From an uncultured Pseudohongiella sp. (GTDB lineage: Bacteria; Pseudomonadota; Gammaproteobacteria; Pseudomonadales; Pseudohongiellaceae), in contig CAYFKD010000003.1 in assembly GCA_964343795.1 (NCBI GenBank), forward strand, positions 260,669-324,668: 64,000 bases of DNA. Direction: 5' to 3'. Of this stretch, positions 4,685 to 38,883 are shown piece by piece. Each line of letters opens with the position of its first letter. Positions within the stretch are counted from its first letter, which is position 1. The notes under the pieces were generated by a model, which searched no databases, was not told where the DNA came from, and saw only the letters and a list, made by a program, of their open reading frames with translations. The position numbers and the translations under genes were made by a program.

Positions 4685-6019
4685 ATGAGAATTCTCTTAG
4701 TAGCACTTTCGCTCGTAATATTCTGCGGGCCCGTTGCTGGCCAGGAGCTGGCCCGGCGGGCATTCCTCGGCGTCATGGTTGCGCCCCTTGATGAAAGCCA
4801 GCAGGCACTCACCGATCATGGCCTCACTATCCAGCGAGTGTTCGACAATTCCACTGCGAGCCGCTTCGGTTTCCAGGAAGGGGAAGTAATCCTCTCGGTT
4901 AACGATGTCGAATTGCGTGGGGTGGGCGAATTGCCCCGGGCGCTGCGGGACTTTCGCAGCGGCGACACCGTTGAGTTCGAAATCCTGGGAGCAGACGGTG
5001 TCAGCAATCGAGAAGTTACCCTGCAACAATTCCCACCGGAACAGTATGAAGCTGCGGAAATAGTCTATGACGCGGTGCAAACCGTGAACGGTTTGCAGCG
5101 CAGCATACTGACAGTTCCGGAGAATGTGCCAACTCCACCAGTGGTGTACATCCTGCAGGGCTTTGACTGTTCTTCCATCGATGTCGCCCTTTCTCCTCCC
5201 AATTCCACGGCCTTATTAATCGAACGCTTAAACAGCATCGGCATGGCCACTTACCGCCTGGAAAAAAGCGGCCGCGGTGACAGTATGGGCCGGCGCTGTG
5301 AAGAGATCGGATTCGAAGATGAATCCAGTGGCTTCATGGCAGGCCTGGATGCATTGAAGAACAACACATCGATTGACCCCGACCGTGTTTTCTTGCTGGG
5401 CATCAGTCTCGGCGGCATCTGGGCACCCATGCTCGCCGCCGAGTCCGAAGTTGCCGGAATCGTGTCATTCGGAACTATCGCCAAGACCTGGCCGGAATAC
5501 ATGTACGACAACTGGCGCCGGCAGTGGGAACTGGCAGGGCGTAGCTATACCGACATGGATAGCGACCTGAAGCTGGCCAGCCAGTTCTGGCATCTGTTGA
5601 TCTCGGAAGACAACAGCCCGGCACAAATCTTTTCACAACAACCACAGCTAAATGAAATTGCAGATTCCGTGGCGTGGGTGGAGCAGTACAACTCCCTGTT
5701 TGGCCGCCATTACAGTTTTGTCGCGGAACTGGCACGCATCAACATCATGGCCCTGTGGCAACAGGTGGAAGCGCCAACCCTGGTGTTATGGGGTCGCGGT
5801 GATTACATCGCCGGGGAAGAAGAGCAACAACTTATTCATCGCGCACTGCAACAGCGCAACGTGGATGCGTCCATTGAATACGTGGATTCCGATCACTACT
5901 GGCGCGAGTCCGAGGATTTCTACACCAGCTACATCAACCTGCGGGAAGGAACACCCACTCCCTTCCAGGAGCAGGTGTTTGCAAAAATACTCGATTGGTT
6001 GGAGCCCAGGGTTTCCTAG
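4685..6019 (+). CDS. Secreted PDZ-domain / alpha-beta hydrolase fusion protein
   Basis: Signal peptide, then a PDZ-like segment (GEVILSVNDVEL), a GxSxG nucleophile elbow (GISLGG) and a late His. Confidence 0.6.
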   Translation: MRILLVALSLVIFCGPVAGQELARRAFLGVMVAPLDESQQALTDHGLTIQRVFDNSTASRFGFQEGEVILSVNDVELRGVGELPRALRDFRSGDTVEFEILGADGVSNREVTLQQFPPEQYEAAEIVYDAVQTVNGLQRSILTVPENVPTPPVVYILQGFDCSSIDVALSPPNSTALLIERLNSIGMATYRLEKSGRGDSMGRRCEEIGFEDESSGFMAGLDALKNNTSIDPDRVFLLGISLGGIWAPMLAAESEVAGIVSFGTIAKTWPEYMYDNWRRQWELAGRSYTDMDSDLKLASQFWHLLISEDNSPAQIFSQQPQLNEIADSVAWVEQYNSLFGRHYSFVAELARINIMALWQQVEAPTLVLWGRGDYIAGEEEQQLIHRALQQRNVDASIEYVDSDHYWRESEDFYTSYINLREGTPTPFQEQVFAKILDWLEPRVS

Positions 6020-6588
6020 TAAGGATATCCCGGAAGTCTCGGAGTCTTGGCCGGCCACTCCGGCAGCGGCGCCCAATTATCCCTGTTAGGCATTTCTATA
6101 TTCGGCAGGTTGTCCTGGTTTAACACGAACTGGTCATCGTCGATGATGTCGTTCATGAAGAACAGGAATGCCGTTAAGGCATATACCTCGTCAGGTGTCA
6201 GGGTGCCTTCCGCGCCCAGGGGCATGCCACGGTTGATGTAATCCCACACCGTGGGTGCGTAGGGAGAACGAATGGGCAGGATACGGCCCCATTGCCAGGG
6301 GTCGTCCGGCGTCGGCATGTCCCTTTTTACTAGCCGTGGTGCCAGTACCCCCTGGCCGTCGGCGCCGTGGCAACCAGCACAGCCCTTGGACAGGAATAAT
6401 TCCGATCCCTGGTCGGCGGTACCGCTGCCGGCGGGTAATTCGTCTCCTGTAATTGGGTTAATTGCGATATCCCAGGCATCGACCTCGGCCTGGGTGGGCG
6501 CGCGGCCCACACCATAGGTGGGGGACTGGGCTTCAACCGCGAAGCCCAGTAAAAGAAAAAGTGGCAGCGCAATCTTAAGCAATCGCAT
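6016..6588 (-). CDS. sorB: Cytochrome c subunit of sulfite dehydrogenase (SorB-like)
   Basis: I take the start at the internal Met (MRLLKIALPLFLLLG signal peptide). There is a single CAGCH heme motif. The gene lies directly downstream of, and overlaps, the molybdoenzyme gene. Confidence 0.75.
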   Translation of the reverse strand: MRLLKIALPLFLLLGFAVEAQSPTYGVGRAPTQAEVDAWDIAINPITGDELPAGSGTADQGSELFLSKGCAGCHGADGQGVLAPRLVKRDMPTPDDPWQWGRILPIRSPYAPTVWDYINRGMPLGAEGTLTPDEVYALTAFLFFMNDIIDDDQFVLNQDNLPNIEMPNRDNWAPLPEWPAKTPRLPGYPY

Positions 6589-7819
6589 TGTGCACACTTC
6601 CGTCGGCATCGATGCGCCAGGGCTGAATTGAATTGTCCTGGCCCTTGACCCGGCCTCGCTCGCCACGGTCTTCCCAATACTGCATGGCTTGCTGCCGTGA
6701 CGGCTGCACTGACCCCAGTTCGTCGATGCAGCGGGATTGCAGTTCGCAGGGCGAGCCGTCCCAGGTCCAGTTAAAGCTGAACGCGGTATGGGCATGGGGG
6801 TGGGCTTCGCCACGAATGTCGGCGTCGAACCAGGTCTCGCCGCCATCGGTGGTCACTTCCACTCGCTCAACACGGCCGCCGCCGGACCAGGCCAGGCCAC
6901 GCACTTCGTAGAAACCGGGGCCGGGCAATTGCTGGCCGCCGGAGGGATAGGTAATCACTGACTTCGGTCCGATCTGCAGGCTCAGGGCGGCATCGTTCGC
7001 ATCCTGGCGCAGGTGTCCATAGTCGTTGTAGGTCATGTAGAACTGGTCCACCACCTTGATGCGGCGCAGCCACTTCACGTTGAGTATGCCTTCACCGCCG
7101 GGAACGATCAGGCGCAGGGGAAAGCCCTGTTGCGGCCGTACCGGTTCGCCGTTCATGCCATAACACACGAGACAATCCGCCATGGCCTTGCTCATGGGAA
7201 TACTGGAGGCGCCTTTCACTTCTTCCACGCCTTCCGCCACGATCCAGGTACCGCCATCCTGCACGCCAGCTTCTTCCAGCAAGGTGGAAAGCAGTACCCC
7301 GGTCCATTCGGCGCAGCTGGTCATACCATGGGTTTCCTGCACCGTGACATGCCGGCTGTTGGCGCGGTTACCGGCACACTCAATAAAATGCAGGCGGGTT
7401 ACGGAAGGCAATCTTTTCAGGTCGTCCATGGTGAACACCAGGGGGTTGTCCACCATGCCGTGAATCATCAGTCGATGTTTTTCCGGGTCGATGTCCGGAA
7501 CGAAAGAACCGCGAGTCGTGCCTACGTAGTGCAGGGAAGAGGGGGTAATAAGACCAACCTGGTCCTGCAGCGGCGTGGCGATGTGGAAGTCCAGCCCAAA
7601 CGCGTCAGGGGAGGGACGCCCACCGTGGGGAATGCGCTTGGAGTTTACGAAGCGGGAACGCTTGCCGTAGGCGACCAGTTCATCGGTACCACGAATCTGG
7701 GCCTCGGGCCCGGGTATTTGTCCCGATGCGGATCGCGCCGTGGCTCCCAGGGCGGCGGCCCCGGCCAGTGCGGCTCCCTGCTTGAGGAATTCCCTTCGAT
7801 CAGTCTTCTTGGAACCCAT
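6575..7819 (-). CDS. sorA: Sulfite dehydrogenase molybdopterin subunit (SorA-like, Tat-exported)
   Basis: Twin-arginine signal (DRREFLK) and sulfite-oxidase family architecture. I take the start at MGSKK (7819), preceded by GGAGAG. Confidence 0.8.
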   Translation of the reverse strand: MGSKKTDRREFLKQGAALAGAAALGATARSASGQIPGPEAQIRGTDELVAYGKRSRFVNSKRIPHGGRPSPDAFGLDFHIATPLQDQVGLITPSSLHYVGTTRGSFVPDIDPEKHRLMIHGMVDNPLVFTMDDLKRLPSVTRLHFIECAGNRANSRHVTVQETHGMTSCAEWTGVLLSTLLEEAGVQDGGTWIVAEGVEEVKGASSIPMSKAMADCLVCYGMNGEPVRPQQGFPLRLIVPGGEGILNVKWLRRIKVVDQFYMTYNDYGHLRQDANDAALSLQIGPKSVITYPSGGQQLPGPGFYEVRGLAWSGGGRVERVEVTTDGGETWFDADIRGEAHPHAHTAFSFNWTWDGSPCELQSRCIDELGSVQPSRQQAMQYWEDRGERGRVKGQDNSIQPWRIDADGSVHNAIA

Positions 7820-8021
7820 GGTTCTCTCCTTCTTACTGAGGTCAACCGAAAGTACTGCCATTTCAAGGGAGTATACGACGGGGAATCGGAAACAAAAAGC
7901 ACCCCGGCGGGCGTGGGAATCGCTTCACCGTAGAGGTCTGAGCTTCACTGCGCCTGGGTTTCGCCCGGTGCCGGATCCGTGCTGCGGAAGTCCGATCCGG
8001 TCCGGGTTAGCGGCGCATTGC

Positions 8022-8459
8022 TTACTGTTTCACCAGTCGTGCACAGTATGAAGTAATCGTGCCGACTTCCTGGTCCAGGTTGGTGAGACAGTATTCAAAC
8101 TCGGACTCACTCTGAAACCACAAATGTCCACGGCTGCCGCCTTCCGTAATGAATAAGGCTTCATCACCCGTGGACCTGATCGATCCCCATACATGCTGAC
8201 CAGGATTATCTGCTGGCGTGGTCGCCGTACGGGAACGGCCGACGAATGTTTCGCCATCCTGCGCGTCGATGGTTAATTGAAGTTCAATTTCACTGATGAT
8301 GACGCCGCCCCGGTCAAGACGATCACTGTTTATATTACCAGAACTCACAACACGTACATTGCCCTTCCAGACACCTACCATGTCCGGATAAGTTTGCGCA
8401 TTCACTGCAATTGAAGAAATTAGAATGAGCGAGCAAGTAAAAAACGAAGAGATCTTCAT
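8022..8459 (-). CDS. Hypothetical secreted protein
   Basis: 145-aa ORF with an N-terminal signal peptide. I do not recognise a family. Confidence 0.6.
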   Translation of the reverse strand: MKISSFFTCSLILISSIAVNAQTYPDMVGVWKGNVRVVSSGNINSDRLDRGGVIISEIELQLTIDAQDGETFVGRSRTATTPADNPGQHVWGSIRSTGDEALFITEGGSRGHLWFQSESEFEYCLTNLDQEVGTITSYCARLVKQ

Positions 8460-8620
8460 ATGCCCCTCCAGTCAATTCTTGATCACTCGCCCAAGCTATC
8501 ACTTAATCCCATATATAGGTAGATAAATCGGCGGCATCTTTTTGACGGCCTCACGAATTTCCTTGGCGAACAAATTACCCGGGAGTACACTCGAGAATTT
8601 ATACCCGGGAAAAACCGGCA

Positions 8621-9064
8621 TTGAAGTCGATACTACGCAGTACTGCTGCGGTCATTCTCAGCCTTGTCGTTGCGCTGGCGCTGGTCGTCGCGATCGAGGT
8701 CATTTCCGCAGTGATGCATCCCTTTCCGGAGGATTTTGGCGGAACCCGCGAAGAAGTGGCCGCACACGTGGCCAACTACCCGGCAGGGGTGCTGGCGCTC
8801 CTCGGTGGAGCGGGGTATGCATTGACCATGGGAGTTTCGGTGTGGCTGGCGACGCGCCTGGGCAGCAGCCGTCATCCGGCCCACGGCTATGGTGTGGGGG
8901 CGTTGTTACTGGCGGCGTTAATCTTCAATATGTCCATGCTGCCTTATCCGCTGTGGTTCGTGGTTCTCGATCTTATCCTGTTGCCGGCCTGCATTTACCT
9001 TGGTGTAAAACTGGGGCGTGGCGAGGTGGGAAATGGCGCAAAGCCAGTAGCTCAGAACGAATAA
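8621..9064 (+). CDS. Hypothetical membrane protein (4 TM)
   Basis: 147-aa hydrophobic ORF. I do not recognise a family. Confidence 0.55.
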   Translation: MKSILRSTAAVILSLVVALALVVAIEVISAVMHPFPEDFGGTREEVAAHVANYPAGVLALLGGAGYALTMGVSVWLATRLGSSRHPAHGYGVGALLLAALIFNMSMLPYPLWFVVLDLILLPACIYLGVKLGRGEVGNGAKPVAQNE

Positions 9065-10482
9065 CTGAGCGTGGCGCCAACCCGGAGATCTTCATCGAAA
9101 AAGATCAAAGGGGTTTCTCCGGTGGCGGTGATGGATATGACCTGGCCACTGACGGACCAGTTGTCATTGAGAATGTAATCCAGCCCGACCAGTGCCAGCA
9201 GCGACTCGGCTTCCAGGTCTCCCTGCAGGGTGGAAGAAAGCACCAGGTCACCGTTCCTCATGCTGTTGCTGTAACGAATCAGCCAGCTTCCGAATACGCC
9301 TTCGTTGACCAGGGCCTGTCCCGGTTGCAGGCCCTGCTTTTCATCGAGTATTTTCTGGGCCTGGATGCCAAGGCTCATACTCTGTTCATTGTCGATGGCC
9401 CATTCGAATCCGAATGAGGTCCCGATCTGGTCTTTCTTCAGGTCAATTGGATTGGCCAGGGAAGATGCACCGGGAAAGTTAAAGCTGTTCTGCTGGATGT
9501 CATGACTGAACGCGAGATCGAAATTCAATAACACCCTTCCTATGGCCCGGTTGGCACTGAATCCCAAAAGGATAAAGTCATTTATTCTGGGAATACCGTC
9601 CTGAGACATGGGACTGGTGGGTGGATCCCAGCGCAGCTGATTTTCGTAGAGATAGGCCGCCATCACGGCAACATCGCTGCCTTCGAAGGTGCGCCGGTAC
9701 TGGGTGCCCACTTCCACCAGTACATCGTTATTGCGGTCATAGTCCAGCATGTGAAAGCCGGGATCGAAAAACAGGGGGCTGCCGCGCACGGGCGCCGGGT
9801 TAAATTCAGGATACAAATTAATAAAGGTGGACCATTGGCTGCGGTTCTCGCCAAAGAAATCCCACACCAGCATCCACTGGTTGAGGCGGGCGTCCTCGAT
9901 GTCGATGATGGTGAAATCCCGGAATTCATTGATATTGATGACGTCCAGTACCGAGTTGCCCACGGTCTCGCCCCAGACCACGGTCTGGCGGCCGAACTTG
10001 AGGCTGTGCTGACCGAAACTGCGCTGCACGAAGAATTCGTTAACCCGGGATTCCGTCTCGATGCTGTCACCGTTGGCCCGGTACTCGTAGTCTTCCTTCC
10101 AGTACACCCGTGACTGGGCGCTGGCCTGTAGTAACCAGCCGGCGGCAAAATTATTCTGGTAGCGCACATTAATGCCGAAGCGGTTGTTTTCGACTTCCGC
10201 TTCCCGGGGAAAGGAAAAACCGGGGGCGAGGTCCACGCCGTGATTGTTTACCTGGCCGAAAAACTGCTGGCTGAGCCGCACGGTAAATCCGTCCAGCCAG
10301 GAATCTTGTTCTTCTTCATCACCTGCAAAGGGATCTTCGAACAGGTCTTCCTCGAAACCAAAATCGATGTCGAAGTCGGTTACGTCATCCAGGCCCGGCT
10401 GGTCGTCGGGCTGGGCGTGGATAAGGGATAGAGGCAGGTGCAGACCAGTAATCAAAATGATCTGCGCGATAAACCTGGTCAT
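9052..10482 (-). CDS. Outer-membrane beta-barrel protein (DUF1302-like), third gene of the RND exporter cluster
   Basis: Signal peptide, acidic N-terminal stretch, alternating beta-strand pattern and a C-terminal aromatic residue (YSF). Confidence 0.55.
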   Translation of the reverse strand: MTRFIAQIILITGLHLPLSLIHAQPDDQPGLDDVTDFDIDFGFEEDLFEDPFAGDEEEQDSWLDGFTVRLSQQFFGQVNNHGVDLAPGFSFPREAEVENNRFGINVRYQNNFAAGWLLQASAQSRVYWKEDYEYRANGDSIETESRVNEFFVQRSFGQHSLKFGRQTVVWGETVGNSVLDVININEFRDFTIIDIEDARLNQWMLVWDFFGENRSQWSTFINLYPEFNPAPVRGSPLFFDPGFHMLDYDRNNDVLVEVGTQYRRTFEGSDVAVMAAYLYENQLRWDPPTSPMSQDGIPRINDFILLGFSANRAIGRVLLNFDLAFSHDIQQNSFNFPGASSLANPIDLKKDQIGTSFGFEWAIDNEQSMSLGIQAQKILDEKQGLQPGQALVNEGVFGSWLIRYSNSMRNGDLVLSSTLQGDLEAESLLALVGLDYILNDNWSVSGQVISITATGETPLIFFDEDLRVGATLSYSF

Positions 10483-30695: not shown

Positions 30696-31496
30696 TCAGG
30701 AGGCCGTCGCCCGAGCGTCCAGGTCCTTCCAGTGACGGGCGCCATTGCCGGGAGTGCGGGTGAGATTAATCCAGATCTCACCGGCTGCGATATTGGTTAC
30801 TCCCGCCATCCAGAAGGTTGTGCCGAACAGCACTTCGACGCCAATGCTGGTATTGGACATCAGTATTCCCAACATGACGCGTTCGGTGGCCACAGCAAGC
30901 ATCATGGCGAAACTGCGAATCATCCATTCCCGGTGCGCGCCGAAATTGCGCTGGCGTATGCGCGTGTAAGCCATGGTGAGGGCGAACAGGGTATACATGG
31001 CAAAGAAAGCGGTAGCCATGGATTCATTAAATCCCTGGCCGGTAATTTCCATGAAGGGATCCAGCACACCGATGATGCTGCCGGACAGGGCAGCAACAAA
31101 TCCACAGGCCAGCCACAGGCGTCCGGACCAGCGATGGAAGTTAATGTATTTCTTGCGGATTACCCGAATGAACTGCAACGGGCCGAGACAAAAGATGATC
31201 AAACCAGGAATCAGGTGTGCCCAGGTAGCCACGGGATTGCGTACGTATCGCCCATCGAAGGGATTAAATGTAGCGAGTGGATCGGTGAACTCCATGGACA
31301 TGGCCTCGCCCATGAAGACGGCGCGGCCCAAAATGGAAGTAAGCCCGGTCCACAGCAGGACCGCCACGATCAGCCACCCCAGGATTTCCACGGTCTTGCG
31401 AATCGCCGGCATGGGTGCGGCGGTAAAATCGGATTGCGCTGCTGCAGGCGCGTTTATTCCCGGTGCAGTCAGGTCAGTCATAGTATCCCCCTTCAA
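30696..31496 (-). CDS. DUF2306-like membrane protein
   Basis: 266-aa multi-TM ORF. The start may instead be MTDL at 31481. Confidence 0.55.
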   Translation of the reverse strand: MKGDTMTDLTAPGINAPAAAQSDFTAAPMPAIRKTVEILGWLIVAVLLWTGLTSILGRAVFMGEAMSMEFTDPLATFNPFDGRYVRNPVATWAHLIPGLIIFCLGPLQFIRVIRKKYINFHRWSGRLWLACGFVAALSGSIIGVLDPFMEITGQGFNESMATAFFAMYTLFALTMAYTRIRQRNFGAHREWMIRSFAMMLAVATERVMLGILMSNTSIGVEVLFGTTFWMAGVTNIAAGEIWINLTRTPGNGARHWKDLDARATAS

Positions 31497-31581
31497 TCAG
31501 ACTGGGCCTAGCTTAGCGTTTGGAACCTTAAAATTCTATCAGGCAGCAGAATAGTGCCCGGCACATTGTATTGGATTTTAC

Positions 31582-32094
31582 CTAATTGGATTCCGAGGAC
31601 TGTTCGATTCCCAGGCCTTGTTCGGCGGTATCAGACATGATCAGCAGGGAGAAATTGTAGACGCTGACCAATAACTGAAAGCTGATGGCCAGAACATACA
31701 TTTTCGCGGAAGGAAGGATTAGTAAAGCGCCGAGAAAATTTCCGAAGCAGATGCTGGCACCAAGCGGGAGCATGGCCCGGTGAACCAGGGAAGCGCGGAA
31801 CAGGCCGCCCCGGCTGAGGAAATACCAGATGTTAAGACCCATTATTGTAGCAACCACCAGGTTCCCGAAGCGCCAGGTGAGCTCGCGGTCGTCGAGAAAC
31901 ATAAAGAGCAGGTAGGGGAGCAGGGCCAGGAACATGGCCGAGATGCTGGCCCGCAGCATGGTCTGGAACTTGGTGATGCTCTCGCCTTCCCAGTCGCCGC
32001 GGCGGAATCGAAAAACCGCCACAATGCCGGTAAAGCCGGCCAGGGCAACGGCAAGCTCAGCGACGAGGGAAAGGTATTCCTGGTGTTCCAGCAT
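31582..32094 (-). CDS. Hypothetical membrane protein
   Basis: I take the start at MLEHQEYL (32094). The longer listed ORF would run into the tRNA promoter region. Confidence 0.5.
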   Translation of the reverse strand: MLEHQEYLSLVAELAVALAGFTGIVAVFRFRRGDWEGESITKFQTMLRASISAMFLALLPYLLFMFLDDRELTWRFGNLVVATIMGLNIWYFLSRGGLFRASLVHRAMLPLGASICFGNFLGALLILPSAKMYVLAISFQLLVSVYNFSLLIMSDTAEQGLGIEQSSESN

Positions 32095-32284
32095 AAGGAT
32101 AAGCTGAGTCTTTCTTCTATTAACCGGGTTAGCGGCACAATCACCTATATGCTTCAGTCCGCGGGCATGACCAACTCCCACCAAACCGCTATAATCTCGC
32201 CTCCAAAACCGGTGCCATAATCTATAATGGCGTGGAGGTTTTGGATCAGAGCCCTCGTTTCGCATCGATCCCGTAGCTCAGCTG

Positions 32285-32415
32285 GGTGAGGCTCGCGAAG
32301 TACGCAAAGCAAAGCTTTGCGCGAGCCGAACGACTCGCCATGGATGGCGAGGCTGGGGTAATTTAGGAGTGCTAATGTTGCGCCAGGGATGGCATGTAAG
32401 ATATCTATAGAATCA
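32285..32415 (+). repeat. Structured GGA-hairpin element, copy U1 (candidate CsrA/RsmA-binding RNA module or miniature insertion element)
   Basis: 131 nt, preceded by a decayed copy of tRNA-Arg positions 1-19 (32266-32284). Hairpins are CTCGCCA-TGGA-TGGCGAG (32333-32350) and GCCA-GGGA-TGGC (32381-32392). Confidence 0.8.
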
Positions 32416-32434
32416 CGCGCCCGTAGCTCAGCTG

Positions 32435-32565
32435 GGTGAGCATGAGCGCGATGGAAGCGATAGCTTCCAGCGAAATGCGAACGACCGGCCATGGATGGCC
32501 GGGCTGGTATTTAGAGAAGCACTGAAGTCGCGACAGGGATGTCAGGCAGGAAACTACAGAATCAC
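32435..32565 (+). repeat. Structured GGA-hairpin element, copy U2
   Basis: Exactly 150 bp after U1 and preceded by GCGCCCGTAGCTCAGCTGG (32416-32434, identical to the tRNA 5' end). Hairpins are CCGGCCA-TGGA-TGGCCGG (32484-32501) and GACA-GGGA-TGTC (32531-32542). Confidence 0.8.
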
Positions 32566-32642
32566 GCGCCCGTAGCTCAGCTGGATAGAGTAACTGGCTT
32601 CGAACCAGTTGGTCGGGAGTTCGAATCTCTCCGGGCGTGCCA
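32566..32642 (+). tRNA. tRNA-Arg (anticodon TCG)
   Basis: Hand-folded 77-nt cloverleaf: acceptor GCGCCCG/CGGGCGT, D arm GCTC/GAGT, anticodon stem ACTGG/CCAGT with loop CTTCGAA, T arm GGGAG-TTCGAAT-CTCTC, G73 and an encoded CCA. Confidence 0.9.
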
Positions 32643-32646
32643 AATG

Positions 32647-32675
32647 AAAAAGGGGAGCCAATGGCTCCCCTTTTT
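32647..32675 (+). terminator. Rho-independent terminator after tRNA-Arg
   Basis: AAAAGGGGAGCC-aa-GGCTCCCCTTTTT. Confidence 0.85.
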
Positions 32676-33069
32676 GTTTGGTATGGCTGGAGAATTGATT
32701 CGAACTCCAAAGTTCGACAAATTGCGTGAGCAATTTGGACGGCCGTAGGCCGCCCCGAAGGGGTGAGGAATTTGCGCCAACGCAAATTCTGAATCAATCT
32801 CTCCGGTGGAAGCCGAAGGCTTCCCGAACGGAGGCAGTGAAATGATCAAAGCCCCACTTAGCTAAGTTACTAGTTTATCAGTGTCCCCTGGATACTAGGC
32901 AGCGCAAGTTTGCCGCAATTTTTCCTAGTGATGTCAAATAATCCTCCAAGCTCTGGCCAGAAGTTATTGATGTAGAGGATAGTAGTTTCCAACGAGCGAA
33001 TAGTCATGTTAATCAAGATGACATGGCTAAAGGAAAAGTTTAGGGAAACTAACTTGGGGGAATGGATCT

Positions 33070-34260
33070 CTATAATTCAAGAAATGCCAGCTGCTTTTTA
33101 TTGAGCCTAGTAATATCTATGCCCGTTTTATTTAGTACATAAGATACAACGGAATCCCTGGTGTCTTTCATCATTTGTGACAACTTCTCAACATTTTCAC
33201 ATTCACTGTAAGTCAAAATGTAACTCTGTACAGTAGACTCGATGCGAGATAAGAATCGGGGGTACGTGATCCCTCTTCGTAGCAGATTATCGAAATCTTT
33301 ATAAGCTAACAGCTTTTCTTTGATTTTATTCGCCTGTGGAGTTGTGACCGTGAGACAATACTTCTTATTCTTTTTTCGCCGGCTAATCCCTTGCCCGAGA
33401 AACTCCGCAGTCTGTTCTGGAGTGTAGATTTTGGTCTTACTTCCATCTCCTAATGCGTGAATTTTTAGTTTCACTGACGCCAATAAGTCGGCACATGTAT
33501 CATGAATCAACTTGCAATCCTCTTCTGTTTTTGCGAAGGCTATTATGTCATCAGCATAGCGAATAATTTCGAACCCAGTAGACAGAAGCTCACTATCGAA
33601 ATCCCAAAGCAACAAATTAGCAAGGTATGGGGACAAAGGCATACCTTGCCTTAGGCCAACTCCATTTCGAATACCCATTGCTCGGATCTTCTTTCTATCT
33701 TCGAAAACACTCTGGTTTACCTCCGTATCAATAACGGCATCGAGAAGAGGGAACAATGACGATACCCTTAACTTCATCCGCAACTGCTCCTTGAGTACCT
33801 CGCGTGGAATCTTGTCGAAGAATGAAGAGATGTCAGCCTTGTAAACCCAGGGGTTATCATGTCGTTTCTTCACTGACGCTTTGAGAGCATCTTTTGCAGA
33901 CTTCCCGCGGATGAATCCATAACTGACAGGATTGTCGAAAGAATATTGACCATTACTTAGGAAGCGATACATTGCTCGTTGCACTAATCTATCGCGGATA
34001 AGAGGGATACAGATTAATCGCTCTGTACCTTCAGGTTTTGGAATAAAAACGGGCGTTAATGGACTGAACGTATAGCTGCCGCACCGGAGTAGCTTAGAGA
34101 TTTCTGAAATTTGAAGTTTCTTTGTTGCTTTAAATTCTGAAAGGGACATTCCACTAGAATCGTGAAATCCACGTACTCGAGTATTCGAGGCCCGGAACAT
34201 TTCCGCCCATTCGAATTCTAGAGAATCAATGGTTGAGAATTTCGAGAAAGCTGATGCCAA
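33070..34260 (-). CDS. Stand-alone reverse transcriptase (RT domain only; defence-associated or unclassified type)
   Basis: The 396-aa protein shows RT motifs 1-7: IPKPEGTERLICIP, RDRLVQRA, YGFIRGKS, KADISSFFDKI, LRQGMPLSPYLANLLL, RYADDIIAF, SKTKI, FLGQGI. The start is TTG, and there is no maturase or endonuclease domain. Confidence 0.85.
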   Translation of the reverse strand: MASAFSKFSTIDSLEFEWAEMFRASNTRVRGFHDSSGMSLSEFKATKKLQISEISKLLRCGSYTFSPLTPVFIPKPEGTERLICIPLIRDRLVQRAMYRFLSNGQYSFDNPVSYGFIRGKSAKDALKASVKKRHDNPWVYKADISSFFDKIPREVLKEQLRMKLRVSSLFPLLDAVIDTEVNQSVFEDRKKIRAMGIRNGVGLRQGMPLSPYLANLLLWDFDSELLSTGFEIIRYADDIIAFAKTEEDCKLIHDTCADLLASVKLKIHALGDGSKTKIYTPEQTAEFLGQGISRRKKNKKYCLTVTTPQANKIKEKLLAYKDFDNLLRRGITYPRFLSRIESTVQSYILTYSECENVEKLSQMMKDTRDSVVSYVLNKTGIDITRLNKKQLAFLEL

Positions 34261-34324
34261 TAGGAGTATTTCCTTTACTCATCGAAGCAACTAAGCCCCA
34301 GTTCGATGAGATTTATTGAACTGG

Positions 34325-34471
34325 CACCAAACGCGAAAACAGTACGCACTTCGTTATTCGCGTGACATCAATGGCGAACTTGCTGTAGCGAGAGCTCTCG
34401 CAATTTGGAACGCGCCAATGTTTAGGCTTTCTCGCAACCCGCGAAACTGCACATTGGTATGCGAAATACAC
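34325..34471. repeat. Direct repeat R, copy A (RT-proximal)
   Basis: Identical base-for-base to 34724-34870 (compared by hand). Confidence 0.95.
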
Positions 34472-34723
34472 GGCGCGATTCCAAATGAGAATGCTTATCA
34501 CTCGTATCAAGCTAAGACCGAAATCTCTCATGGCTAGAAGTACCTTAGGACTAAAGCCGCAGAGCATGGCTACGGTGCGTCGAAATTTGACTACTACCTC
34601 GACGAGCTTGACCAGCCGGCCAGCGCACTCCGATACCGCGGCTCCGCAGTCGATCGCGTGAAAGCCGTTGCCGGCCACCCTTGCTTCTGGGGCGAATGAC
34701 CGGACATCGACGCGTAACAAGAC

Positions 34724-34870
34724 CACCAAACGCGAAAACAGTACGCACTTCGTTATTCGCGTGACATCAATGGCGAACTTGCTGTAGCGAGAGCTCTCGC
34801 AATTTGGAACGCGCCAATGTTTAGGCTTTCTCGCAACCCGCGAAACTGCACATTGGTATGCGAAATACAC
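34724..34870. repeat. Direct repeat R, copy B (RT-distal)
   Basis: 147-bp perfect copy. The offset is 399 bp, which equals 133 codons. Confidence 0.95.
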
Positions 34871-34878
34871 CGACAATC

Positions 34879-34909
34879 ATTATGTAAGGCCTGGCCTAAA
34901 GATTTTCAA
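34879..34909 (-). promoter_or_regulatory. Putative sigma70 promoter driving the R-U-R RNA and the RT gene
   Basis: On the minus strand the sequence reads TTGAAA, 19 nt, CATAAT. The predicted start near 34872 is about 2 nt upstream of repeat B. Confidence 0.3.
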
Positions 34910-35088
34910 GGGTTTCTAACTATTCGAATGACTACATAGGATTGTTGGTCAATTATCGACCAGCCGTCAAGAACAGGAGTTCACGGCTAATGGCGACGAG
35001 AATTTTTCTGAAGTTTGGATAGTGTAGTAGCAGTTGTACTCAGCCCAACTCGATGTAGGCAATTTTGACTCAATTCTAGATTTAACCA

Positions 35089-35170
35089 AGGTCGCAAGTC
35101 ATTGATATCTATATAACTGCAATTTTTTAGAGCGAGATTCGAATCTTAGCAACCGAGATTGGACGGCCGT
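35089..35170. repeat. Internal module junction: degenerate right-end plus tRNA T-arm remnant plus left-end motif
   Basis: GGTCGCAAGTCATTGATATCTATATAACTGCAATTTT resembles 36946-36987. GAGATTCGAATCT is a T-arm remnant. AGCAACCGAGATTGGACGGCCGT resembles 32729-32746. Confidence 0.65.
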
Positions 35171-35521
35171 TCAATATTCGAATGGTTTCAGTGAATTGCA
35201 GTGGAAGCTGAAAAGCACTGATTCAAAATCTAGTAGAAAATATTTCTAGAAGGCTATGCAGGGGTCTAAAAAGATAAGTCGTGGCCAAGCTGGCCAAGAA
35301 GGATTATCGCTTAGAAGCAAGTATTCACATTCCTTTAGAATCCGGAAAATCTCTAGTTGGGATTTTTCCGAAAGATGCGCCTTGCCCACTAAAATAGTGG
35401 GAATTGTCCTACATACACGAGTTTCGTGGGGGTGTAATGTTCGTCTCCTTGGTGGTTGATTCCAAGATATTTATGGGTCCGCGAGAATCTTGTTTAGACT
35501 GGACGATTAAGGAGAACTCAA

Positions 35522-36127
35522 TTGAATTATAGAAGATGGCTTACATCAGTATTTGCTCTATTAGCATTTATAAATCCTACAATTAGCTTCGCACAGTGCT
35601 CGGTAAATCCATTGTCGTGGTTATGGTGGTCAAATCTAGGGGATGCAGAAGATCTAACTTCTGGCCCGGGCTCTTACCCTCAAACCTATACCTACTGGAT
35701 ACAATCGGGGGCAACCACATACTTAAATACGGACCTGGATGCTGGTTTAGGGCCTAATGGAGAAGGCGAAGTTACTTTCTTCAACACTGCAATGGGGCAG
35801 AATGGACCATTTGGATCGACAGAAGCTTGGTCCACTAGTGAAACGTGCCATGTCTGGATAGGTGGAAGAACCTACGATTCGGGGAATTGTAATACTACTA
35901 CCCAACGACCGATAAAAGGTCAGATTAGGTTAAATGATTCAATTCTTGCGAATCCATCATACATAGCTCTTGGGGCTCCTATGACAACGATTCAACATGA
36001 AACAGGGCACATATTCGGAATGGGACATAATGATTCCTGCACTTCATTTATGAAAACGAGCTTCGTGGCTGGATTGCCTTCAAGTTTGCAATTCTGGGAA
36101 GTTATTTGGATTAATGCAAATTATTAA
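35522..36127 (+). CDS. Secreted metzincin-like zinc metalloprotease
   Basis: Signal peptide and the HETGHIFGMGH motif (HExxHxxGxxH), with a downstream Met (SFM). The start is TTG after AAGGAG. Confidence 0.65.
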   Translation: MNYRRWLTSVFALLAFINPTISFAQCSVNPLSWLWWSNLGDAEDLTSGPGSYPQTYTYWIQSGATTYLNTDLDAGLGPNGEGEVTFFNTAMGQNGPFGSTEAWSTSETCHVWIGGRTYDSGNCNTTTQRPIKGQIRLNDSILANPSYIALGAPMTTIQHETGHIFGMGHNDSCTSFMKTSFVAGLPSSLQFWEVIWINANY

Positions 36128-36152
36128 TACTCAAATAAATAAGGGGAGAATT

Positions 36153-36812
36153 ATGAAATCATATATTTTCGTGCTAGTTCTACTGGTGCCTTTAGGGGCC
36201 GAAGTAAATCCTCTATATGCTCAAGGCATATCAGCTGACCAATTCATTTACTACATGGATTATTCAGCAGAAAACGGATGGATACCGGAGAGTATAGAAA
36301 CTATGGTGTCTACATCTCATATTATTGTGAAAGGCAGATTTGGCAATTTGATTAGTAATCAACCCTTTTGGGGTTATGGCGAATCTCGCGAGTCTTTTAT
36401 AGAAAAGTTAAATATATCGGATGAAGAAGCTGATCGCATGGCTATTCCTTTGAGTGAGTATGAAATAGTTATTGACGAGGTAGTTTTTGGAGACATTAAA
36501 TCCGATAAAATTGTCTACAGAGTCTTTGAGAGCTACCCTTCAGAAGAAGAAGAGCTTGATCAAAAGAAGTCTATTGAAAGACTTTTTTTCCTCAGACTGA
36601 ATGAGGATGGAGAAACATACTCGAGTATTGGGCAACCGTTTATTTTGGACAATATAGACGGTGAGTATAGCTTTTTAGCTCGTGGAAGATCGATAACTGA
36701 TACTTCTAGAAAGACTTTGCCATTTGTTGAAAGTATGCAGAAAGTCGCTTTTGAGCAGGCAATAAAACAAGAGGTTGCGAGACAAATGGCAGAAATCGGG
36801 CGAGCAAATTAA
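36153..36812 (+). CDS. Hypothetical secreted protein (partner of the metzincin)
   Basis: I take the start at MKSYIFVLVLL after AAGGGGAG. There is a signal peptide but no family I recognise. Confidence 0.6.
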   Translation: MKSYIFVLVLLVPLGAEVNPLYAQGISADQFIYYMDYSAENGWIPESIETMVSTSHIIVKGRFGNLISNQPFWGYGESRESFIEKLNISDEEADRMAIPLSEYEIVIDEVVFGDIKSDKIVYRVFESYPSEEEELDQKKSIERLFFLRLNEDGETYSSIGQPFILDNIDGEYSFLARGRSITDTSRKTLPFVESMQKVAFEQAIKQEVARQMAEIGRAN

Positions 36813-36992
36813 CATCCAATAAACAACGCTAAGAAGAAGCCATGCCGAATTGTTCACACTCTTGGTTCGAGTATCAATATGTAACAAAAAACCACTCTTT
36901 ATTGCTCATTGGAGATACCTATGAGTTAATTCTCAAATCAACCGAGATCGCAAATCATTGATATTCTAATAGCTGTAATTTTGTGGATACTC

Positions 36993-37070
36993 CTTCGAAC
37001 CAGTTGATCGGGAATTCGAATGTCTCCGGGCGTGCGAAACAAAAAGGGGAGCCAATGGCTCCCCTTTTTT
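36993..37070 (+). repeat. attR-like displaced 3' half of tRNA-Arg plus terminator copy
   Basis: Aligns with 32598-32675 with about five substitutions and one 1-nt indel, and it lacks CCA. Confidence 0.85.
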
Positions 37071-37083
37071 ATCCGCTCCAATT

Positions 37084-38883
37084 CTATCTCGGATCCTGCC
37101 CCCTCTCTCTTCGCTCCCTTACAGGCGCGGCCCGTGATGGCGCGGCCCGTGACGGTGCAGCTCGTGAGGGTGCTTCGGCCCTCCGCGGCGCTGCAGAAGG
37201 AGCCTGTCTCCGTGCCGGGGATGGTTGGCTTCTCCGCTGAGGAGGGGGTGCGCTCCGTGCCTGTCTTGGCTGGGAAATTTCACGTCTTCGTTCGGGAGGG
37301 GCCGAACGCTGGCTGCGCTGCGGTTGCACGCGGGCAGGTCTCGGTGAAGATTGCCTGATCGTGGGTTGAGCGGTAAGAGCTTGCCGGTTTTGAGGCTGGC
37401 TCGTTACGCGGCTACGGTTATTCTGACTGGATGCCGTGTTACGAGTGGTTCGCTGTCGGTTCGAACCCGAACGTTCCATCCTGTTACGAAAAGTGAATAC
37501 CGCCTCGGGCTGGCTCCTGTTACGTGCGCTTGCAGCGGATTCTTCGGTACTGGAGTTACCCTGGTTTACACCTGTGTTGTTTCTCCTGGGTGATGGTCTC
37601 GCGACCCTGTTACCGGACTGCCGGCGATCGCTACTGGATCGGGTCAGGTTGTCCGGCGCGGTTATTGCCGCCGTGTTGGTATCCGGCCCCAGGGAATTCG
37701 ACAATGAGCGGGCGCCATTGGTATTGGGTCGGCCGCTGCCCTGGCGCAGGCTGCGTTCCCGCGCGCTCGGATTCTGTCGGCCGGCGCCGCTCAGTGCGGC
37801 AAGGTTTGAGTTCGACGCATTGCTGCGGTACTGGCCGTAGCTGCCGCGATTGCGCAGTGCTTCATCGAAGCGTTCGCGGGCCGGTGAGCTGTTGGCGTAG
37901 TAGTCGCGATAGCTGGAACTGTTCGGGCGTGATCCACTGTGGCGTTGCGGCCGCCAGTAACTGCCATAACGGTTCTTGTCCCGCACTTCCCGAAAACTGT
38001 TGTTGACGTAGTGACGGTTAAAACTGGCGATGGTTGGGCGCCGGTAGTGGTGGTACCCGAAGTCATAGTAGTGACCATAGTACGGGTGATGGTGGTAGCT
38101 GTGGTGAAAAACGCCCAGGTAATGATCCGACCAGTGTATGGAAAATGCCGTCGTGACGCCCCAGAAAAAACCGGAGTGAAAGTGATAGCCTCGCGGGTAG
38201 GGATAGTAGTACACGGGGCGGGGCCGGGGGTAATAGTGGTAGACCGCAACGGGCTGTTCCACGATGACTTCCTCGACTACGTAATAAGGAACATAGACTA
38301 CTTTTTCATCCACCGGTGTAATTTCGATGGTTTCTTCCGTAACCAACACGTTCTGGTATTCATCCGAAACCAGGTTGCCGGCGGCATGGGCGCGCGCCCG
38401 GAATGACTCCACTGCCGCCAGCACATCGGTTTGCTGTGCAATCACCGCTTCACCCAGCTGCCAGGTGGATTCGATTTCTTCATTCATTAGCAACAGAATT
38501 TCCGGATAGTTGAGCAGGGCAATGATGGATTCATCCCAGGATTCATCGGGGGTGAGATCGGGATCGGTTTCAAGCTGCTCAAGAAACCGCGCCGCCAGGA
38601 CAATTTCCAGGGGATAGGTGGAGGCGGGCAGGATGATGGCCAGCAGGTCATCCGGCTGTAGCGCATAAGGGCCAACCAACTGCTCAAGCTCGGCAGCCGT
38701 GTAGAGGATTACCGCGGGATCAGGATCTATGGGTTGCTGTGCCGTGGTCGAGATGATTTCCAGCGGGTTGCCGTCGGCGTCCACTGGTGTCTGAGCGCCT
38801 ACAGATCCGCAACCCATTAAAAGGAGTAACGGAAAACACAGTAAGCTTCTGAAAAAGCGAAGGATTGCTGATTTCCTGGTCAT
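37084..38883 (-). CDS. DUF3300-like lipoprotein with a long low-complexity C-terminal tail
   Basis: Lipobox LLMGC and the N-terminal motif LLAIILPASTYPLEIVLAARF. The C-terminal half or so is rich in S, R, N, P and Q and ends in APSRA repeats. Confidence 0.7.
   Translation of the reverse strand: MTRKSAILRFFRSLLCFPLLLLMGCGSVGAQTPVDADGNPLEIISTTAQQPIDPDPAVILYTAAELEQLVGPYALQPDDLLAIILPASTYPLEIVLAARFLEQLETDPDLTPDESWDESIIALLNYPEILLLMNEEIESTWQLGEAVIAQQTDVLAAVESFRARAHAAGNLVSDEYQNVLVTEETIEITPVDEKVVYVPYYVVEEVIVEQPVAVYHYYPRPRPVYYYPYPRGYHFHSGFFWGVTTAFSIHWSDHYLGVFHHSYHHHPYYGHYYDFGYHHYRRPTIASFNRHYVNNSFREVRDKNRYGSYWRPQRHSGSRPNSSSYRDYYANSSPARERFDEALRNRGSYGQYRSNASNSNLAALSGAGRQNPSARERSLRQGSGRPNTNGARSLSNSLGPDTNTAAITAPDNLTRSSSDRRQSGNRVARPSPRRNNTGVNQGNSSTEESAASARNRSQPEAVFTFRNRMERSGSNRQRTTRNTASSQNNRSRVTSQPQNRQALTAQPTIRQSSPRPARVQPQRSQRSAPPERRREISQPRQARSAPPPQRRSQPSPARRQAPSAAPRRAEAPSRAAPSRAAPSRAAPVRERRERGQDPR

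Follow-up and report, generated by a model that had tools for sequence, protein, structure and literature searches.

What is the role of a sequence that begins and ends with the same 147 nucleotides, is encoded directly upstream of a bacterial reverse transcriptase (RT) gene and is free of stop codons in one frame? This question is raised by a locus within a 64-kb stretch of DNA (hereafter, the window), for which a preliminary description had reported such an arrangement, denoted here R1-U-R2. The relevant elements are as follows.

33070..34260, minus strand: reverse transcriptase gene, 396 aa, TTG start, YADD active site
34724..34870, minus strand: R1, the RT-distal copy of the 147-nt repeat, from the repeat search
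34472..34723, minus strand: U, the 252-nt unique segment between R1 and R2, stop-free in the R1 frame
34325..34471, minus strand: R2, the RT-proximal copy of the 147-nt repeat, forming the 3' part of the short linear ORF
34313..34876, minus strand: stop-to-stop frame across R1-U-R2, 187 codons, remaining open in a head-to-tail array of the 399-nt unit
34313..34531, minus strand: short linear ORF, with an SD motif (AAGG, 34546-34543), ATG at 34531-34529 and 72 codons through R2 to the TAA at 34315-34313

Nearly all that had been claimed for these elements holds; the SD and ATG start within the unit, the hairpin after R2, the copy-specific block and the group-II-intron-like nature of the RT, all described below, had escaped the preliminary description. 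The repeat search recovered the two 147-bp copies at 100% identity and a spacing of 399 nt (3 x 133), with no third copy anywhere in the 64-kb window. The claimed RT-strand frame runs from the TGA at 34879-34877 to the TAA at 34315-34313 (ORF 34313-34876, 187 aa, TTG start) and reads R1 and R2 in one phase, as described, and the other frames are interrupted across this span, by 10 and 7 stops on the RT strand and by 3, 3 and 10 on the opposite strand. Upon circularisation, frame 0 of the 399-nt unit remains open, in agreement with the proposed stop-free concatemer, and the palindromes reported in the repeat are present in the sequence. The distance of about 50 nt between the end of the unit and the RT start has to be qualified: a distance of 52 nt to the TTG at 34260 applies to the stop codon, whereas R2 ends 64 nt before this TTG. 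The open frame is not attributable to chance because just 0.9% of the shuffles of the 399-nt unit of the window are open in any RT-strand frame when circularised. Neither is R1-U-R2 an assembly artefact, given that two independent metagenome contigs of the same organism (L001 and L002, 99.9% identical) both carry the unit. The sole 4 differences between these contigs and the window in 4.4 kb are in R2, with AAAG instead of GCGT (34413-34410), so that the perfect R1/R2 identity of the window is an unusual state. Coding of U on the opposite strand, which looks protein-like by eye in the window, was considered and rejected in view of the stops in the opposite-strand frames of the window and most other loci.

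The R-U-R module is conserved. The locus set consists of 64 loci from a scan of a genome collection and contig look-ups, the window included, and 3 held-out IMG/VR loci, for a total of 67, with RTs that are down to about 31% identical to that of the window. In 65 of the 67 repeat-carrying loci, a repeat pair of 75-157 nt and 95-100% identity is located just upstream of a homologous RT; across the 67, the pair ends about 50-240 nt upstream of the RT. Periods span 273-453 nt; 65 of the 67 loci have a period divisible by 3 (binomial p about 1e-28 without correction for shared ancestry), as do 29 of the 31 distinct values. The circularised R+U unit is stop-free in one RT-strand frame in 61 of the 64 scan and look-up loci, where shuffles lead one to expect 2.4 of 61, and in all 3 held-out loci, that is, in 64 of 67 overall; none of the opposite-strand frames is consistently open among the 64. 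A 3n, stop-free, terminally redundant unit upstream of RT homologues, the pattern by which the preliminary description had proposed that its idea be judged, is thus found across Alpha-, Beta- and Gammaproteobacteria as well as in the held-out IMG/VR loci. The evidence to the contrary that it had named, homologues without the repeat, does exist in part, in the form of about 10 related loci with a single R and no U. Among these, Sphingopyxis loci match a two-copy relative at 97-98% identity over R2 and the flank that follows it; the single-R loci could be real deletions or collapsed assemblies.

Two further elements flank the unit.

34879..34909, minus strand: putative sigma70 promoter, -35 TTGAAA at 34909-34904, 19-nt spacer, -10 CATAAT at 34884-34879, from the sequence and its relatives
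34278..34310, minus strand: hairpin just past the stop codon that follows R2, stem arms CTCATCGAA and TTCGATGAG, loop CTGGGGCTTAGTTGC

The TTGAAA-19-CATAAT promoter is present as claimed, and a TTGAA(A/T) -35 element occurs at equal offset in the gammaproteobacterial relatives L004-L010, L013, L018 and L021; it is missing from the promoter scan list because its 19-nt spacer falls outside the scanned range of 16-18. Transcription from this promoter is predicted to begin about 2 nt or less from the 5' edge of R1. Promoter-like sites with a score of at least 9 are found upstream of R1 in 8 of 64 loci, compared with 1.6% of shuffles, and show no enrichment upstream of R2 in the same 64 loci. The hairpin, which in the window is followed by the ribosome-binding site of the RT gene, varies in sequence but recurs in position: a perfect post-R2 stem of at least 6 bp is present in 62 of 65 loci, starting at most 15 nt from the R2 end in most of them, and stems of at least 9 bp are found in 45% of the loci versus 7% of shuffles, with 50 different stem sequences and GGG in the loop of 32. 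It is a candidate RT-binding or initiation element, and its location, overlapping the stretch that immediately precedes the RT start, brings to mind the DIVa binding site of intron RTs.

The window contains all four features that define the module, namely, a direct repeat pair at most 250 nt upstream of the RT, a 3n period, an open circularised sense frame and a post-R2 hairpin. Clustering of the ORFs from 82 loci revealed no conserved partner genes, only the RT and the unit. A scan of representative genomes yielded 484 RT relatives, and such relatives are present in Acinetobacter, Burkholderia, Ralstonia, Bradyrhizobium, Sphingomonads and marine gammaproteobacteria. No published description of this family was found in the literature, a possibly relevant ncRNA-mining preprint aside (bioRxiv 10.64898/2026.09.22.753630). 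The best explanation of these observations is that the promoter, R1, U, R2, the hairpin and the RT gene constitute a widespread, undescribed, two-part retroelement-like module.

The window RT consists of the RT (fingers and palm) and thumb/X maturase regions, without an endonuclease domain; its N-terminal 20 residues align with homologues, and it carries the QGxxxSP and YADD (IRYADDIIAF) motifs. Pfam identifies RVT_1 only, the best PDB matches are Cas6-RT-Cas1 (7kft, 1e-26), the GsI-IIC RT (3e-22) and G2L4 (1e-16), and TIGR04416 is matched over nearly the whole profile at 177 bits, which is below the family cutoff of 300. Judging by these matches, the RT is group-II-intron-like rather than UG/DRT-type. 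The group II intron RTs, G2L4 and the CRISPR-associated RT-Cas1 proteins are its closest sequence relatives, but there is no ribozyme here of the kind found in mobile group II introns (Rfam, 31000-38000), nor are there cas genes near the module loci; G2L4, which has YIDD in place of YADD, is a weaker match than RT-Cas1 or GsI-IIC. None of these group II intron RT relatives is reported with a repeat-flanked coding unit. Among the defence RTs, PADLOC RT_UG17 is the second-best named match (1e-38), although only profile positions 32-290 of 429 are covered. DRT10/UG17 (formerly G2L3) resembles the module as an ncRNA-templated maker of tandem repeats, but DRT10 produces 7-nt repeats and requires a SLATT effector (bioRxiv 10.64898/2026.04.29.721553), whereas neither a SLATT gene nor any other conserved neighbour accompanies the module in 82 loci; moreover, the G2L3 sequences of a 2014 survey (16 members in the dataset) have YVDD (PMC4244168), in contrast to the YADD of the window RT. 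The Drt2 models of NCBIfam (NF041746, 47 bits vs a cutoff of 390) and PADLOC (2.6e-15, much weaker than the generic RT and UG17 matches) match poorly. A retron affiliation was rejected, with NF038233 at 71 bits against a cutoff of 235 and with repeats that are direct, not inverted. The window RT is not a DRT2, DRT10/UG17, retron or diversity-generating (DGR) enzyme.

The position of the start codons is informative as to what keeps the frame open. In most beta/gamma-type loci, the sole SD-preceded in-frame ATG is located 40-75 nt before R2, so that about 190-220 nt of stop-free, 3n-constrained U, including an Arg/Lys-rich and hydrophobic segment, lie upstream of the start. In the window, U likewise holds the SD and ATG of the short linear ORF and, near its 3' end, a conserved motif coding for (V/M)RxIxI. 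In alpha-type loci, the SD and ATG are found 12-70 nt after R1, and R1 is still in frame. Although every credible start codon is located downstream of R1, this copy contains no stops and shares the frame of U; no conserved start codon in or before R1 was detected across the loci compared, and in many of them an in-frame stop occurs 0-3 codons upstream of R1. Because in many loci the stop-free stretch extends upstream of the sole credible start, the continuity of the frame from R to U is under selection even though it is linearly untranslated. An A-to-T change in the Cupriavidus and Ralstonia loci creates a TAG in R2 only, and a 1-nt indel at the copy-specific block (described below) in the Burkholderia loci shifts the frame of R2 only; in both cases R1 is open, which implies that the R1-U junction is selected and not inherited from R2. 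Taken at the level of sequence, selection keeps the R+U unit 3n and stop-free over the R1-to-U junction even where this junction is linearly untranslated.

R itself evolves as a nucleic acid. Its conservation exceeds that of U by a factor of 2-5 at each of the three codon positions, and clades differ in the phase in which it is read relative to the GGTTGC motif, from which it follows that R acts as RNA/DNA. With its conserved GGTTGCG motif and several hairpins, R1 is a structured RNA/DNA; RNAalifold predicts hairpins in R, with compensatory changes in only 4 pairs per clade, and no Rfam family was found in or around the unit (31000-38000, where the tRNA and weak chance matches are the only hits). 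A strong protein-coding signature was not found, the third-position excess being weak at only about 25%, and the hydrophobic segment of the predicted product is indistinct in the window and in L004. The 187-aa ORF has no match in NCBIfam or PHROGs, and its sole match among 5.8 billion proteins is the ORF of the sibling contig; a YmcF-like assignment was sub-threshold (24.9 bits vs a cutoff of 27) and is taken as chance.

The two copies evolve in concert, with 759 pairwise sites fixed in both copies versus 91 that are copy-specific. By this measure, R1 and R2 are continually homogenised, with the exception of one block of 2-4 nt.

34809..34812, minus strand: copy-specific block in R1, GCGT right after an invariant GGC; G/C-rich in R1 of relatives
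34410..34413, minus strand: copy-specific block in R2, GCGT (R1-type) in the window, AAAG in L001 and L002

In most relatives, the R2 block is A-rich (AAA, AAC, AGC), and the window is without this usual A-rich block. A role of the block as a helix switch, paired in R1 and open in R2, was rejected as too inconsistent: the minimum free energy is lower for R1 than for R2 in 17 of 22 loci, and clear extra pairs form in some lineages.

A 3n, stop-free, conserved R-U-R unit suggests that the RT builds a repetitive gene from this unit. There is a precedent for a cell writing a gene that is absent from its genome by repeated reverse transcription of a non-coding RNA, namely, DRT2, in which rolling-circle reverse transcription builds a 3n, stop-free repetitive gene (PMC11100668, PMC12039810). 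The specific proposition that the RT makes a head-to-tail or circular cDNA by repeat-mediated strand transfer, and that this cDNA carries a long repetitive ORF, appears to us evenly poised between right and wrong. Under this scenario, a single transcript, with its 5' end at the start of R1 or close to it, would cover R1, U, R2, the hairpin and the RT gene. The RT would bind its own RNA at the hairpin or R2, initiate cDNA synthesis near the 3' edge of R2 and copy R2, U and R1 as far as the 5' end of the RNA. The cDNA end complementary to R1 would then anneal to R2, either on its own template or on a second transcript, in the manner of strand transfer through R in retroviruses and pararetroviruses, and synthesis would resume. 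This would yield (R-U)n units joined head to tail or, if recombination follows, a single-R circle. In favour of this scenario, group II intron RTs are described as proficient template switchers (PMC8363836). Against it, the window RT lacks an RNase H domain that could release the growing cDNA for the transfer step, and the single-R loci, the weak coding signature and the lack of any locus with more than two R copies likewise count against it. On the sense strand of the product, an ORF beginning at the SD and ATG in U would run via R into the next U, past the linear stop beyond R2, and the encoded protein would repeat a basic stretch and a hydrophobic helix, making it a plausible membrane-acting abortive-infection effector. 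The copy-specific block likely makes R2 functionally unlike R1, for example, as an initiation or acceptor site.

The similarity to DRT2 lies in a stand-alone RT with an unannotated template region immediately upstream on the RT strand and no other conserved gene, in a template unit that is 3n and stop-free head to tail, and in a predicted product that is repetitive and hydrophobic, with a short ORF alone visible in the linear genome. Apart from the RT lineage, there are several differences. The units are 273-453 nt long compared with about 120 nt in DRT2, and the proposed jump would involve a genome-encoded terminal redundancy of 75-157 nt instead of 3-nt ACA motifs. In DRT2, neo is encoded on the strand opposite to the ncRNA, and its promoter is reconstituted across the repeat junction (PMC12039810), whereas the open frame here has the polarity of the RNA; both the long redundancy and the co-orientation of the frame with the RT had been correctly singled out in the preliminary description. 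No promoter can be reconstituted here because the multimer creates no new junction sequence, and the linear ORF has its own start and stop. In the family-wide scan, no promoter-like site was found at the U-to-R junction and no sigma70-like sense promoter inside the unit, so that DRT2-style transcription of a concatemer is without support. That scan also gave no support to a candidate internal promoter at the end of U (CTTGA, at equal offset before both copies in the window and L004).

The other relevant comparison is with retroviruses and pararetroviruses (caulimoviruses, hepadnaviruses). As in these viruses, the predicted RNA begins and ends with R, transcription is predicted to start right where R begins, and R would guide strand transfer towards a circular or greater-than-unit-length DNA. 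The hairpins in both R copies are reminiscent of the HBV pgRNA, in which the epsilon hairpin is reported to be contained in both redundant copies (PMC10534774). In contrast to retroviruses, LTR elements and pararetroviruses, the redundancy encloses only the 252-nt U, with the RT gene outside; no capsid, RNase H, integrase or terminal-protein domain is present, and the module resides in bacterial chromosomes, its unit measuring only about 0.3-0.45 kb and showing no sign of mobility.

Among the alternatives, amplification at the DNA level is unlikely. Here, RecA-mediated or cDNA-assisted unequal recombination would produce chromosomal (R-U)n-R arrays in a subpopulation, with proteins of 2, 3 or n units expressed from the native promoter and with the RT supplying recombinogenic cDNA or acting otherwise. 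Such arrays would provide the promoter, start and stop that the free multimer lacks and would account equally well for the 3n and open-frame constraints; concerted evolution fits frequent R1/R2 recombination, and the solo-R loci are evidence of R1 x R2 recombination, or of assembly collapse. Against this stand the structured, conserved R, the hairpin and the strict RT linkage, which are unaccounted for unless cDNA is involved, and the lack of arrays with more than two R copies in any of the 67 loci, although short-read assemblies would collapse arrays.

It is quite unlikely that R is a duplicated cis-acting RNA element, such as an RT-binding or regulatory leader, placed both before the small ORF and before the RT, the continuity of the frame being a side effect, with the RT making a short or single-round cDNA or regulating translation. 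The 3n period in 65 of the 67 loci is not predicted by such a duplication, and neither are the stop-free pre-start sequence and the open R1 despite the R2 stop; besides, no promoter was found before R2. What this account does capture is the conservation of R as a nucleic acid, with hairpins and motifs, and the copy-specific block, which suggests that R1 and R2 fold or act differently, and it has a precedent in a retron whose ssDNA is reported to relieve the repression of effector translation (bioRxiv 10.1101/2025.10.22.683967).

An ordinary protein of about 130-200 aa, with identical N- and C-terminal 30-50 residues maintained by gene conversion, is distinctly improbable. Gene callers do predict R1-U-R2 as a gene (185 aa in L001, 205 aa in L004), and coding constraint alone would hold indels to multiples of 3. 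However, a conserved start or SD at or before R1 is lacking, with an in-frame stop 0-3 codons upstream in many loci, the transcription start is predicted at the edge of R1, and there are clear SD and ATG starts within U. In several beta lineages, R2 is cut by a stop or frameshift with the nucleotides still identical; the third-position bias of R is weak and its phase varies among clades, and there is no protein family match and only one database relative.

A DGR-like diversifier, with R2 as the template repeat, R1 as the variable repeat and adenine-directed rewriting, is very improbable indeed: a repeat pair of about 100-150 bp does adjoin the RT, and the block is usually A in R2 where R1 has another base, but only this one block of 2-4 nt differs, dozens of other adenines never do, and non-A positions of the block differ as well. 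In addition, the RT, with its QGxxxSP and YADD motifs, groups with the group II intron RTs, there is no Avd, conserved accessory gene or target gene with a variable C-terminus, and the identity of L001 and L002 in R1 indicates no adenine-specific variation. The recent neutral 1.37-copy tandem duplication that had been offered as the alternative, or an assembly artefact, can claim the 100% R1/R2 identity in the window and the existence of one-copy relatives but is hardly credible at all, and is rejected given the R-U-R architecture in 67 loci with RTs down to about 31% identical to that of the window, the period and frame constraints, concerted evolution and the two independent assemblies from the same organism.

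If the RT does extend cDNA across the repeats into a multimer, the module could represent a second, independent gene-building RT system, in which a group-II-intron-derived RT acts on a chromosomal R-U-R 'pregenome' through retrovirus-like transfer and generates a stop-less ORF for a repetitive membrane protein, a possibility that we put forward tentatively, with doubt somewhat outweighing belief. The gene-writing principle of DRT2 would then have arisen at least twice, the second time in an unrelated RT lineage and with a retrovirus-like long-redundancy jump, threefold larger units and sense orientation. The module would be a bacterial counterpart of pararetroviral replication that supplies an effector gene when it is needed; orphan group-II-intron-like RTs, which form a large clade, would acquire a function, and a class of coding sequence invisible to standard annotation would come to light. 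The combination of a repeat pair, a 3n period and an open circularised frame is a search signature that is usable around other RTs. Even if the multimer model is wrong, strong selection on the frame across an apparently untranslated junction needs explaining.

Two loci have a defence-island setting: in Burkholderia lata, the module has a retron II-A on one side and a type I R-M system on the other, and in Chromohalobacter, it is beside HsdR. By analogy, and from these two neighbourhoods, the R-U-R and RT module may have a role in defence. In the window, the module is carried by a 4.3-kb low-GC islet bounded by two 78-nt direct repeats.

32598..32675, plus strand: left 78-nt direct repeat, comprising the 3' half of a tRNA-Arg and a terminator hairpin
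36993..37070, plus strand: right 78-nt direct repeat bounding the islet

Upstream of a reverse transcriptase (RT) gene, the window carries a terminally redundant R-U-R unit, in which a unique segment (U) separates the RT-distal (R1) and RT-proximal (R2) copies of one repeat. The features of this module are as follows.

34724-34870, minus strand: R1, 147 nt, from the repeat scan
34325-34471, minus strand: R2, 147 nt, from the repeat scan
34313-34876, minus strand: open frame through R1-U-R2, 187 codons, from the TGA at 34879-34877 to the TAA at 34315-34313
just upstream of R1, minus strand: promoter-like elements TTGAAA and CATAAT, 19 nt apart
ATG at 34531, minus strand: short linear ORF of 72 codons, its start preceded by a Shine-Dalgarno (SD) sequence
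34310-34278, minus strand: hairpin after R2, perfect stem
33070-34260, minus strand: RT gene, 396 aa, YADD

The repeat scan bears out the preliminary description of a 147-bp perfect repeat with a spacing of 399: R1 and R2 are 100% identical over 147 nt at an offset of 399 nt, and the 64-kb window holds no third copy. The claim that a single RT-strand frame is open across both copies in the same phase also holds: the copies share one reading phase in the 187-codon frame, the five remaining frames across the unit contain 3-10 stops each, and any RT-strand frame is open in just 0.9% of shuffled, circularised versions of the window unit. An assembly artefact is ruled out because two independent metagenome contigs from the same organism, L001 and L002 (99.9% identical), have the same structure. 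The window differs from these contigs at only 4 adjacent positions over 4.4 kb, all in R2 (GCGT in the window at 34413-34410, AAAG in the contigs; L001 1553-1556); either R2 of the window was converted to the R1 type or the assembler merged two variants.

The R-U-R arrangement is real, non-random and conserved. An RT alignment, used as the query against a set with one genome per species, recovered 484 RT relatives; the best 80 loci were retrieved, and the 1.6 kb upstream of each RT was compared with itself. Most loci with sufficient upstream DNA contain one repeat pair of 75-157 nt, with 95-100% identity, that ends ~50-240 nt ahead of the RT; the window RT gene starts 64 nt beyond the proximal repeat. 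These loci come from Alpha-, Beta- and Gammaproteobacteria, among them Acinetobacter, Burkholderia, Ralstonia, Cupriavidus, Janthinobacterium, Bradyrhizobium, Sphingomonas, relatives of Caulobacter and marine gammaproteobacteria. The comparison initially proposed, namely, whether RT homologues are preceded by a stop-free, terminally redundant unit with a period of 3n, gives a positive answer. The period is a multiple of 3 in 65 of 67 loci and in 29 of the 31 distinct periods (273-453), and the two others, 395 and 281, are each 1 base below the period of close relatives. In 61 of 64 loci, circularised R1+U leaves exactly one RT-strand frame without a stop (shuffle expectation, 2.4 of 61), and no consistently open opposite-strand frame was found across the loci. 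In three further, held-out IMG/VR loci (periods 453, 402 and 381), every module feature was found, including the single open circularised frame (3/3).

The RT itself matches RVT_1 alone in Pfam. The nearest NCBIfam model is that of group II intron RT/maturases (177 bits, below the cutoff of 300; positions 21-351 of 353), with the Drt2, Drt3, retron and Abi models scoring far lower. PADLOC places a generic RT model first, followed by a partial UG17 match and RT-Cas1, and the closest solved structures are Cas6-RT-Cas1 and the GsI-IIC RT, with G2L4 weaker. Against Rfam, the module region shows neither a ribozyme nor a known ncRNA. By these matches, the RT is classified as a free-standing, group-II-intron-like enzyme. 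It does not belong to DRT2, DRT10/UG17, G2L4, the retrons or the DGRs. The closest distinct relative, the Logan contig L003 (RT 68% identical), encodes a second RT of 570 aa, 270 nt downstream of the first (L003 1553-3265), which is absent from the window.

Pairwise comparison of related loci yields 759 sites substituted in both copies vs 91 copy-specific sites, a pattern showing that the copies are homogenised and evolve in concert. Substitution in R is 2-5 times below that in U at each of the three codon positions, with only a weak third-position excess (R, 319/281/425; U, 1185/1164/1465). The conserved R motifs are GGTTGCG and an invariant GGC, the R hairpins show few compensatory pairs, and the phase of the open frame relative to GGTTGC varies between clades. 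R acts as a nucleic acid, and selection in the open frame bears mainly on openness and phase, not on a particular peptide. The main R1-R2 difference is a single block of 2-4 nt after the invariant GGC, which is A-rich in R2 (AAA, AAC, AGC), usually as an in-frame Gln codon, and G/C-rich in R1. Folding predictions suggest a longer helix for the R1 version in several lineages, though not consistently. The window locus is atypical in two respects, an R1-type block in R2 and a U segment that lacks a clear hydrophobic segment, so that a typical member is preferable as an experimental model.

Promoter-like sites with a TTGAA(A/T) -35 element lie directly upstream of R1 in gamma- and betaproteobacterial loci, with the predicted transcription start 0-8 nt from the first repeat base. 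Such sites precede R1 in 8 of 64 loci (vs 1.6% of shuffles) and R2 in one of 64, without enrichment; the family-wide promoter scan found no internal sense promoter in the unit. Enrichment before R1 and not R2 suggests that the module is probably transcribed as a single R1-U-R2-hairpin-RT RNA. A hairpin with a perfect stem of 6 bp or more follows R2 in 62 of 65 loci, mostly no farther than 15 nt from the end of R2; the stems comprise 50 different sequences, the loop commonly reads YTGGGG, and 45% of loci have a stem of 9 bp or more, compared with 7% of shuffles.

In-frame starts preceded by an SD sequence follow two patterns. In the alpha-type, GGAGG and ATG lie 12-70 nt past R1, and the ORF of 90-130 codons spans most of U and R2. 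In the beta/gamma-type, which includes the window, SD and ATG lie 40-75 nt ahead of R2, and the ORF has 41-85 codons; the ~190-220 nt of U preceding this start are still stop-free and 3n. This stretch encodes an Arg/Lys-rich run followed by a hydrophobic segment of ~17-20 residues, the most recognisable protein-like feature of the family (50 of 61 loci). No conserved start codon in R1 was found across the loci, many of which have an in-frame stop 0-3 codons ahead of R1. R2 alone acquires a TAG by substitution in Cupriavidus and Ralstonia and a frameshift by a 1-nt indel in Burkholderia; R1 stays open in both cases. Together with the open U ahead of the start, this shows that selection keeps the R1-to-U junction translatable, which a linear reading leaves unexplained and a head-to-tail or circular arrangement explains.

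The best-supported reading is a strand-transfer mechanism. The RT would bind and copy its own upstream RNA, initiating near the 3' edge of R2 and running through to R1 at the 5' end of the RNA; re-pairing of the R1-complementary cDNA end with R2 would then let synthesis go on. The product would be (R-U)n multimers, or circles with one R if recombination follows, and on its sense strand, if expressed, an ORF begun in U would escape the stop beyond R2. The data establish the layout and conservation of the module, the concerted evolution of its repeats and the constraints on frame and period, whereas we infer the transcript ends, RT binding, the site of initiation, the cDNA jump, the multimer with its expression, and a role in defence. 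Against the multimer stand the missing internal sense promoter, RNase H domain and assembly with more than two R copies (none was found in any assembly), the weak coding signal, the ~10 single-R loci and the fact that it yields no new junction sequence. The main rival, chromosomal amplification of the unit, is a variant of the same model that would solve the promoter problem.

The single-R loci (L005, L007, L018, L021, L040, L044, L057, L067, L070 and possibly L073) have the order promoter, R, hairpin, RT, without U, and resemble solo LTRs; the R1-type block is present in the four gammaproteobacterial ones checked (L005, L007, L018 and L021). Deletion could explain the single-R loci, as could collapse during assembly; in some, a short-read assembler may have merged the repeat and dropped a U contig of <500 bp. 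Another related locus, L035, contains a second, degenerate pair (2470-2865; 80 nt, 72% identical, spacing 318 = 3 x 106) ~1 kb upstream of its intact R-U-R, possibly the degraded remnant of an older unit.

Like retroviruses and pararetroviruses, the module has a template with redundant ends, and the strand transfer through R proposed here would follow theirs, but the RT gene of the module is outside the unit. The proposed outcome most resembles DRT2, in which rolling-circle synthesis produces the repetitive gene neo (PMC11100668, PMC12039810), but the module departs from DRT2 in RT family, ORF orientation, junction promoter and jump motif. No such unit is reported with the relatives of this RT (group II intron RTs, RT-Cas1 and G2L4), and the repeat-unit family is absent from the full-text literature searched, the 2008-2022 RT surveys and the August 2026 defence-systems review. 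The module would be another form of RT-built repetitive gene, and it may well be something more distinct.

No other conserved gene was found beside the module in the loci compared. In Burkholderia lata, it has a type II-A retron on one side and a type I R-M system on the other (strain LMG 23254, locus L016: retron RT and NDT effector, HsdR and HsdM; 389-2274, 5209-9129), a defence island with two different RT systems adjacent; in Chromohalobacter, it adjoins HsdR. In the window, the surroundings comprise the following.

32598-32675 and 36993-37070: 78-nt direct repeats, each with the tRNA-Arg(TCG) 3' half and terminator hairpin
35522-36127 and 36114-36812, plus strand: two overlapping ORFs with hydrophobic N-termini
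37084-38883, minus strand: 599-aa ORF just outside the islet

The 4.3 kb between the direct repeats (32676-36992; GC 0.43 vs 0.545 for the whole window) contain the RT module and the two unannotated ORFs, lack an integrase and look like a small tRNA-targeted genomic islet. Neither ORF has a PADLOC or PHROGs match; the first has a zinc-protease-like HExxH motif (HETGHIFGMGH). Tandem repeats of ~150 nt at 32327-32584 carry the first ~20 nt of the tRNA-Arg gene with its upstream flank (32405-32435, 32554-32584) and a GC-rich palindrome (32327-32356, 32478-32507). These units, of which the sibling contigs contain three, may be scars of repeated integration. The N-terminus of the 599-aa ORF is lipoprotein-like, and its very long C-terminal half is of low complexity, with abundant Arg, Ser, Pro, Gln and Asn and short peptides repeated in tandem (APSRA).
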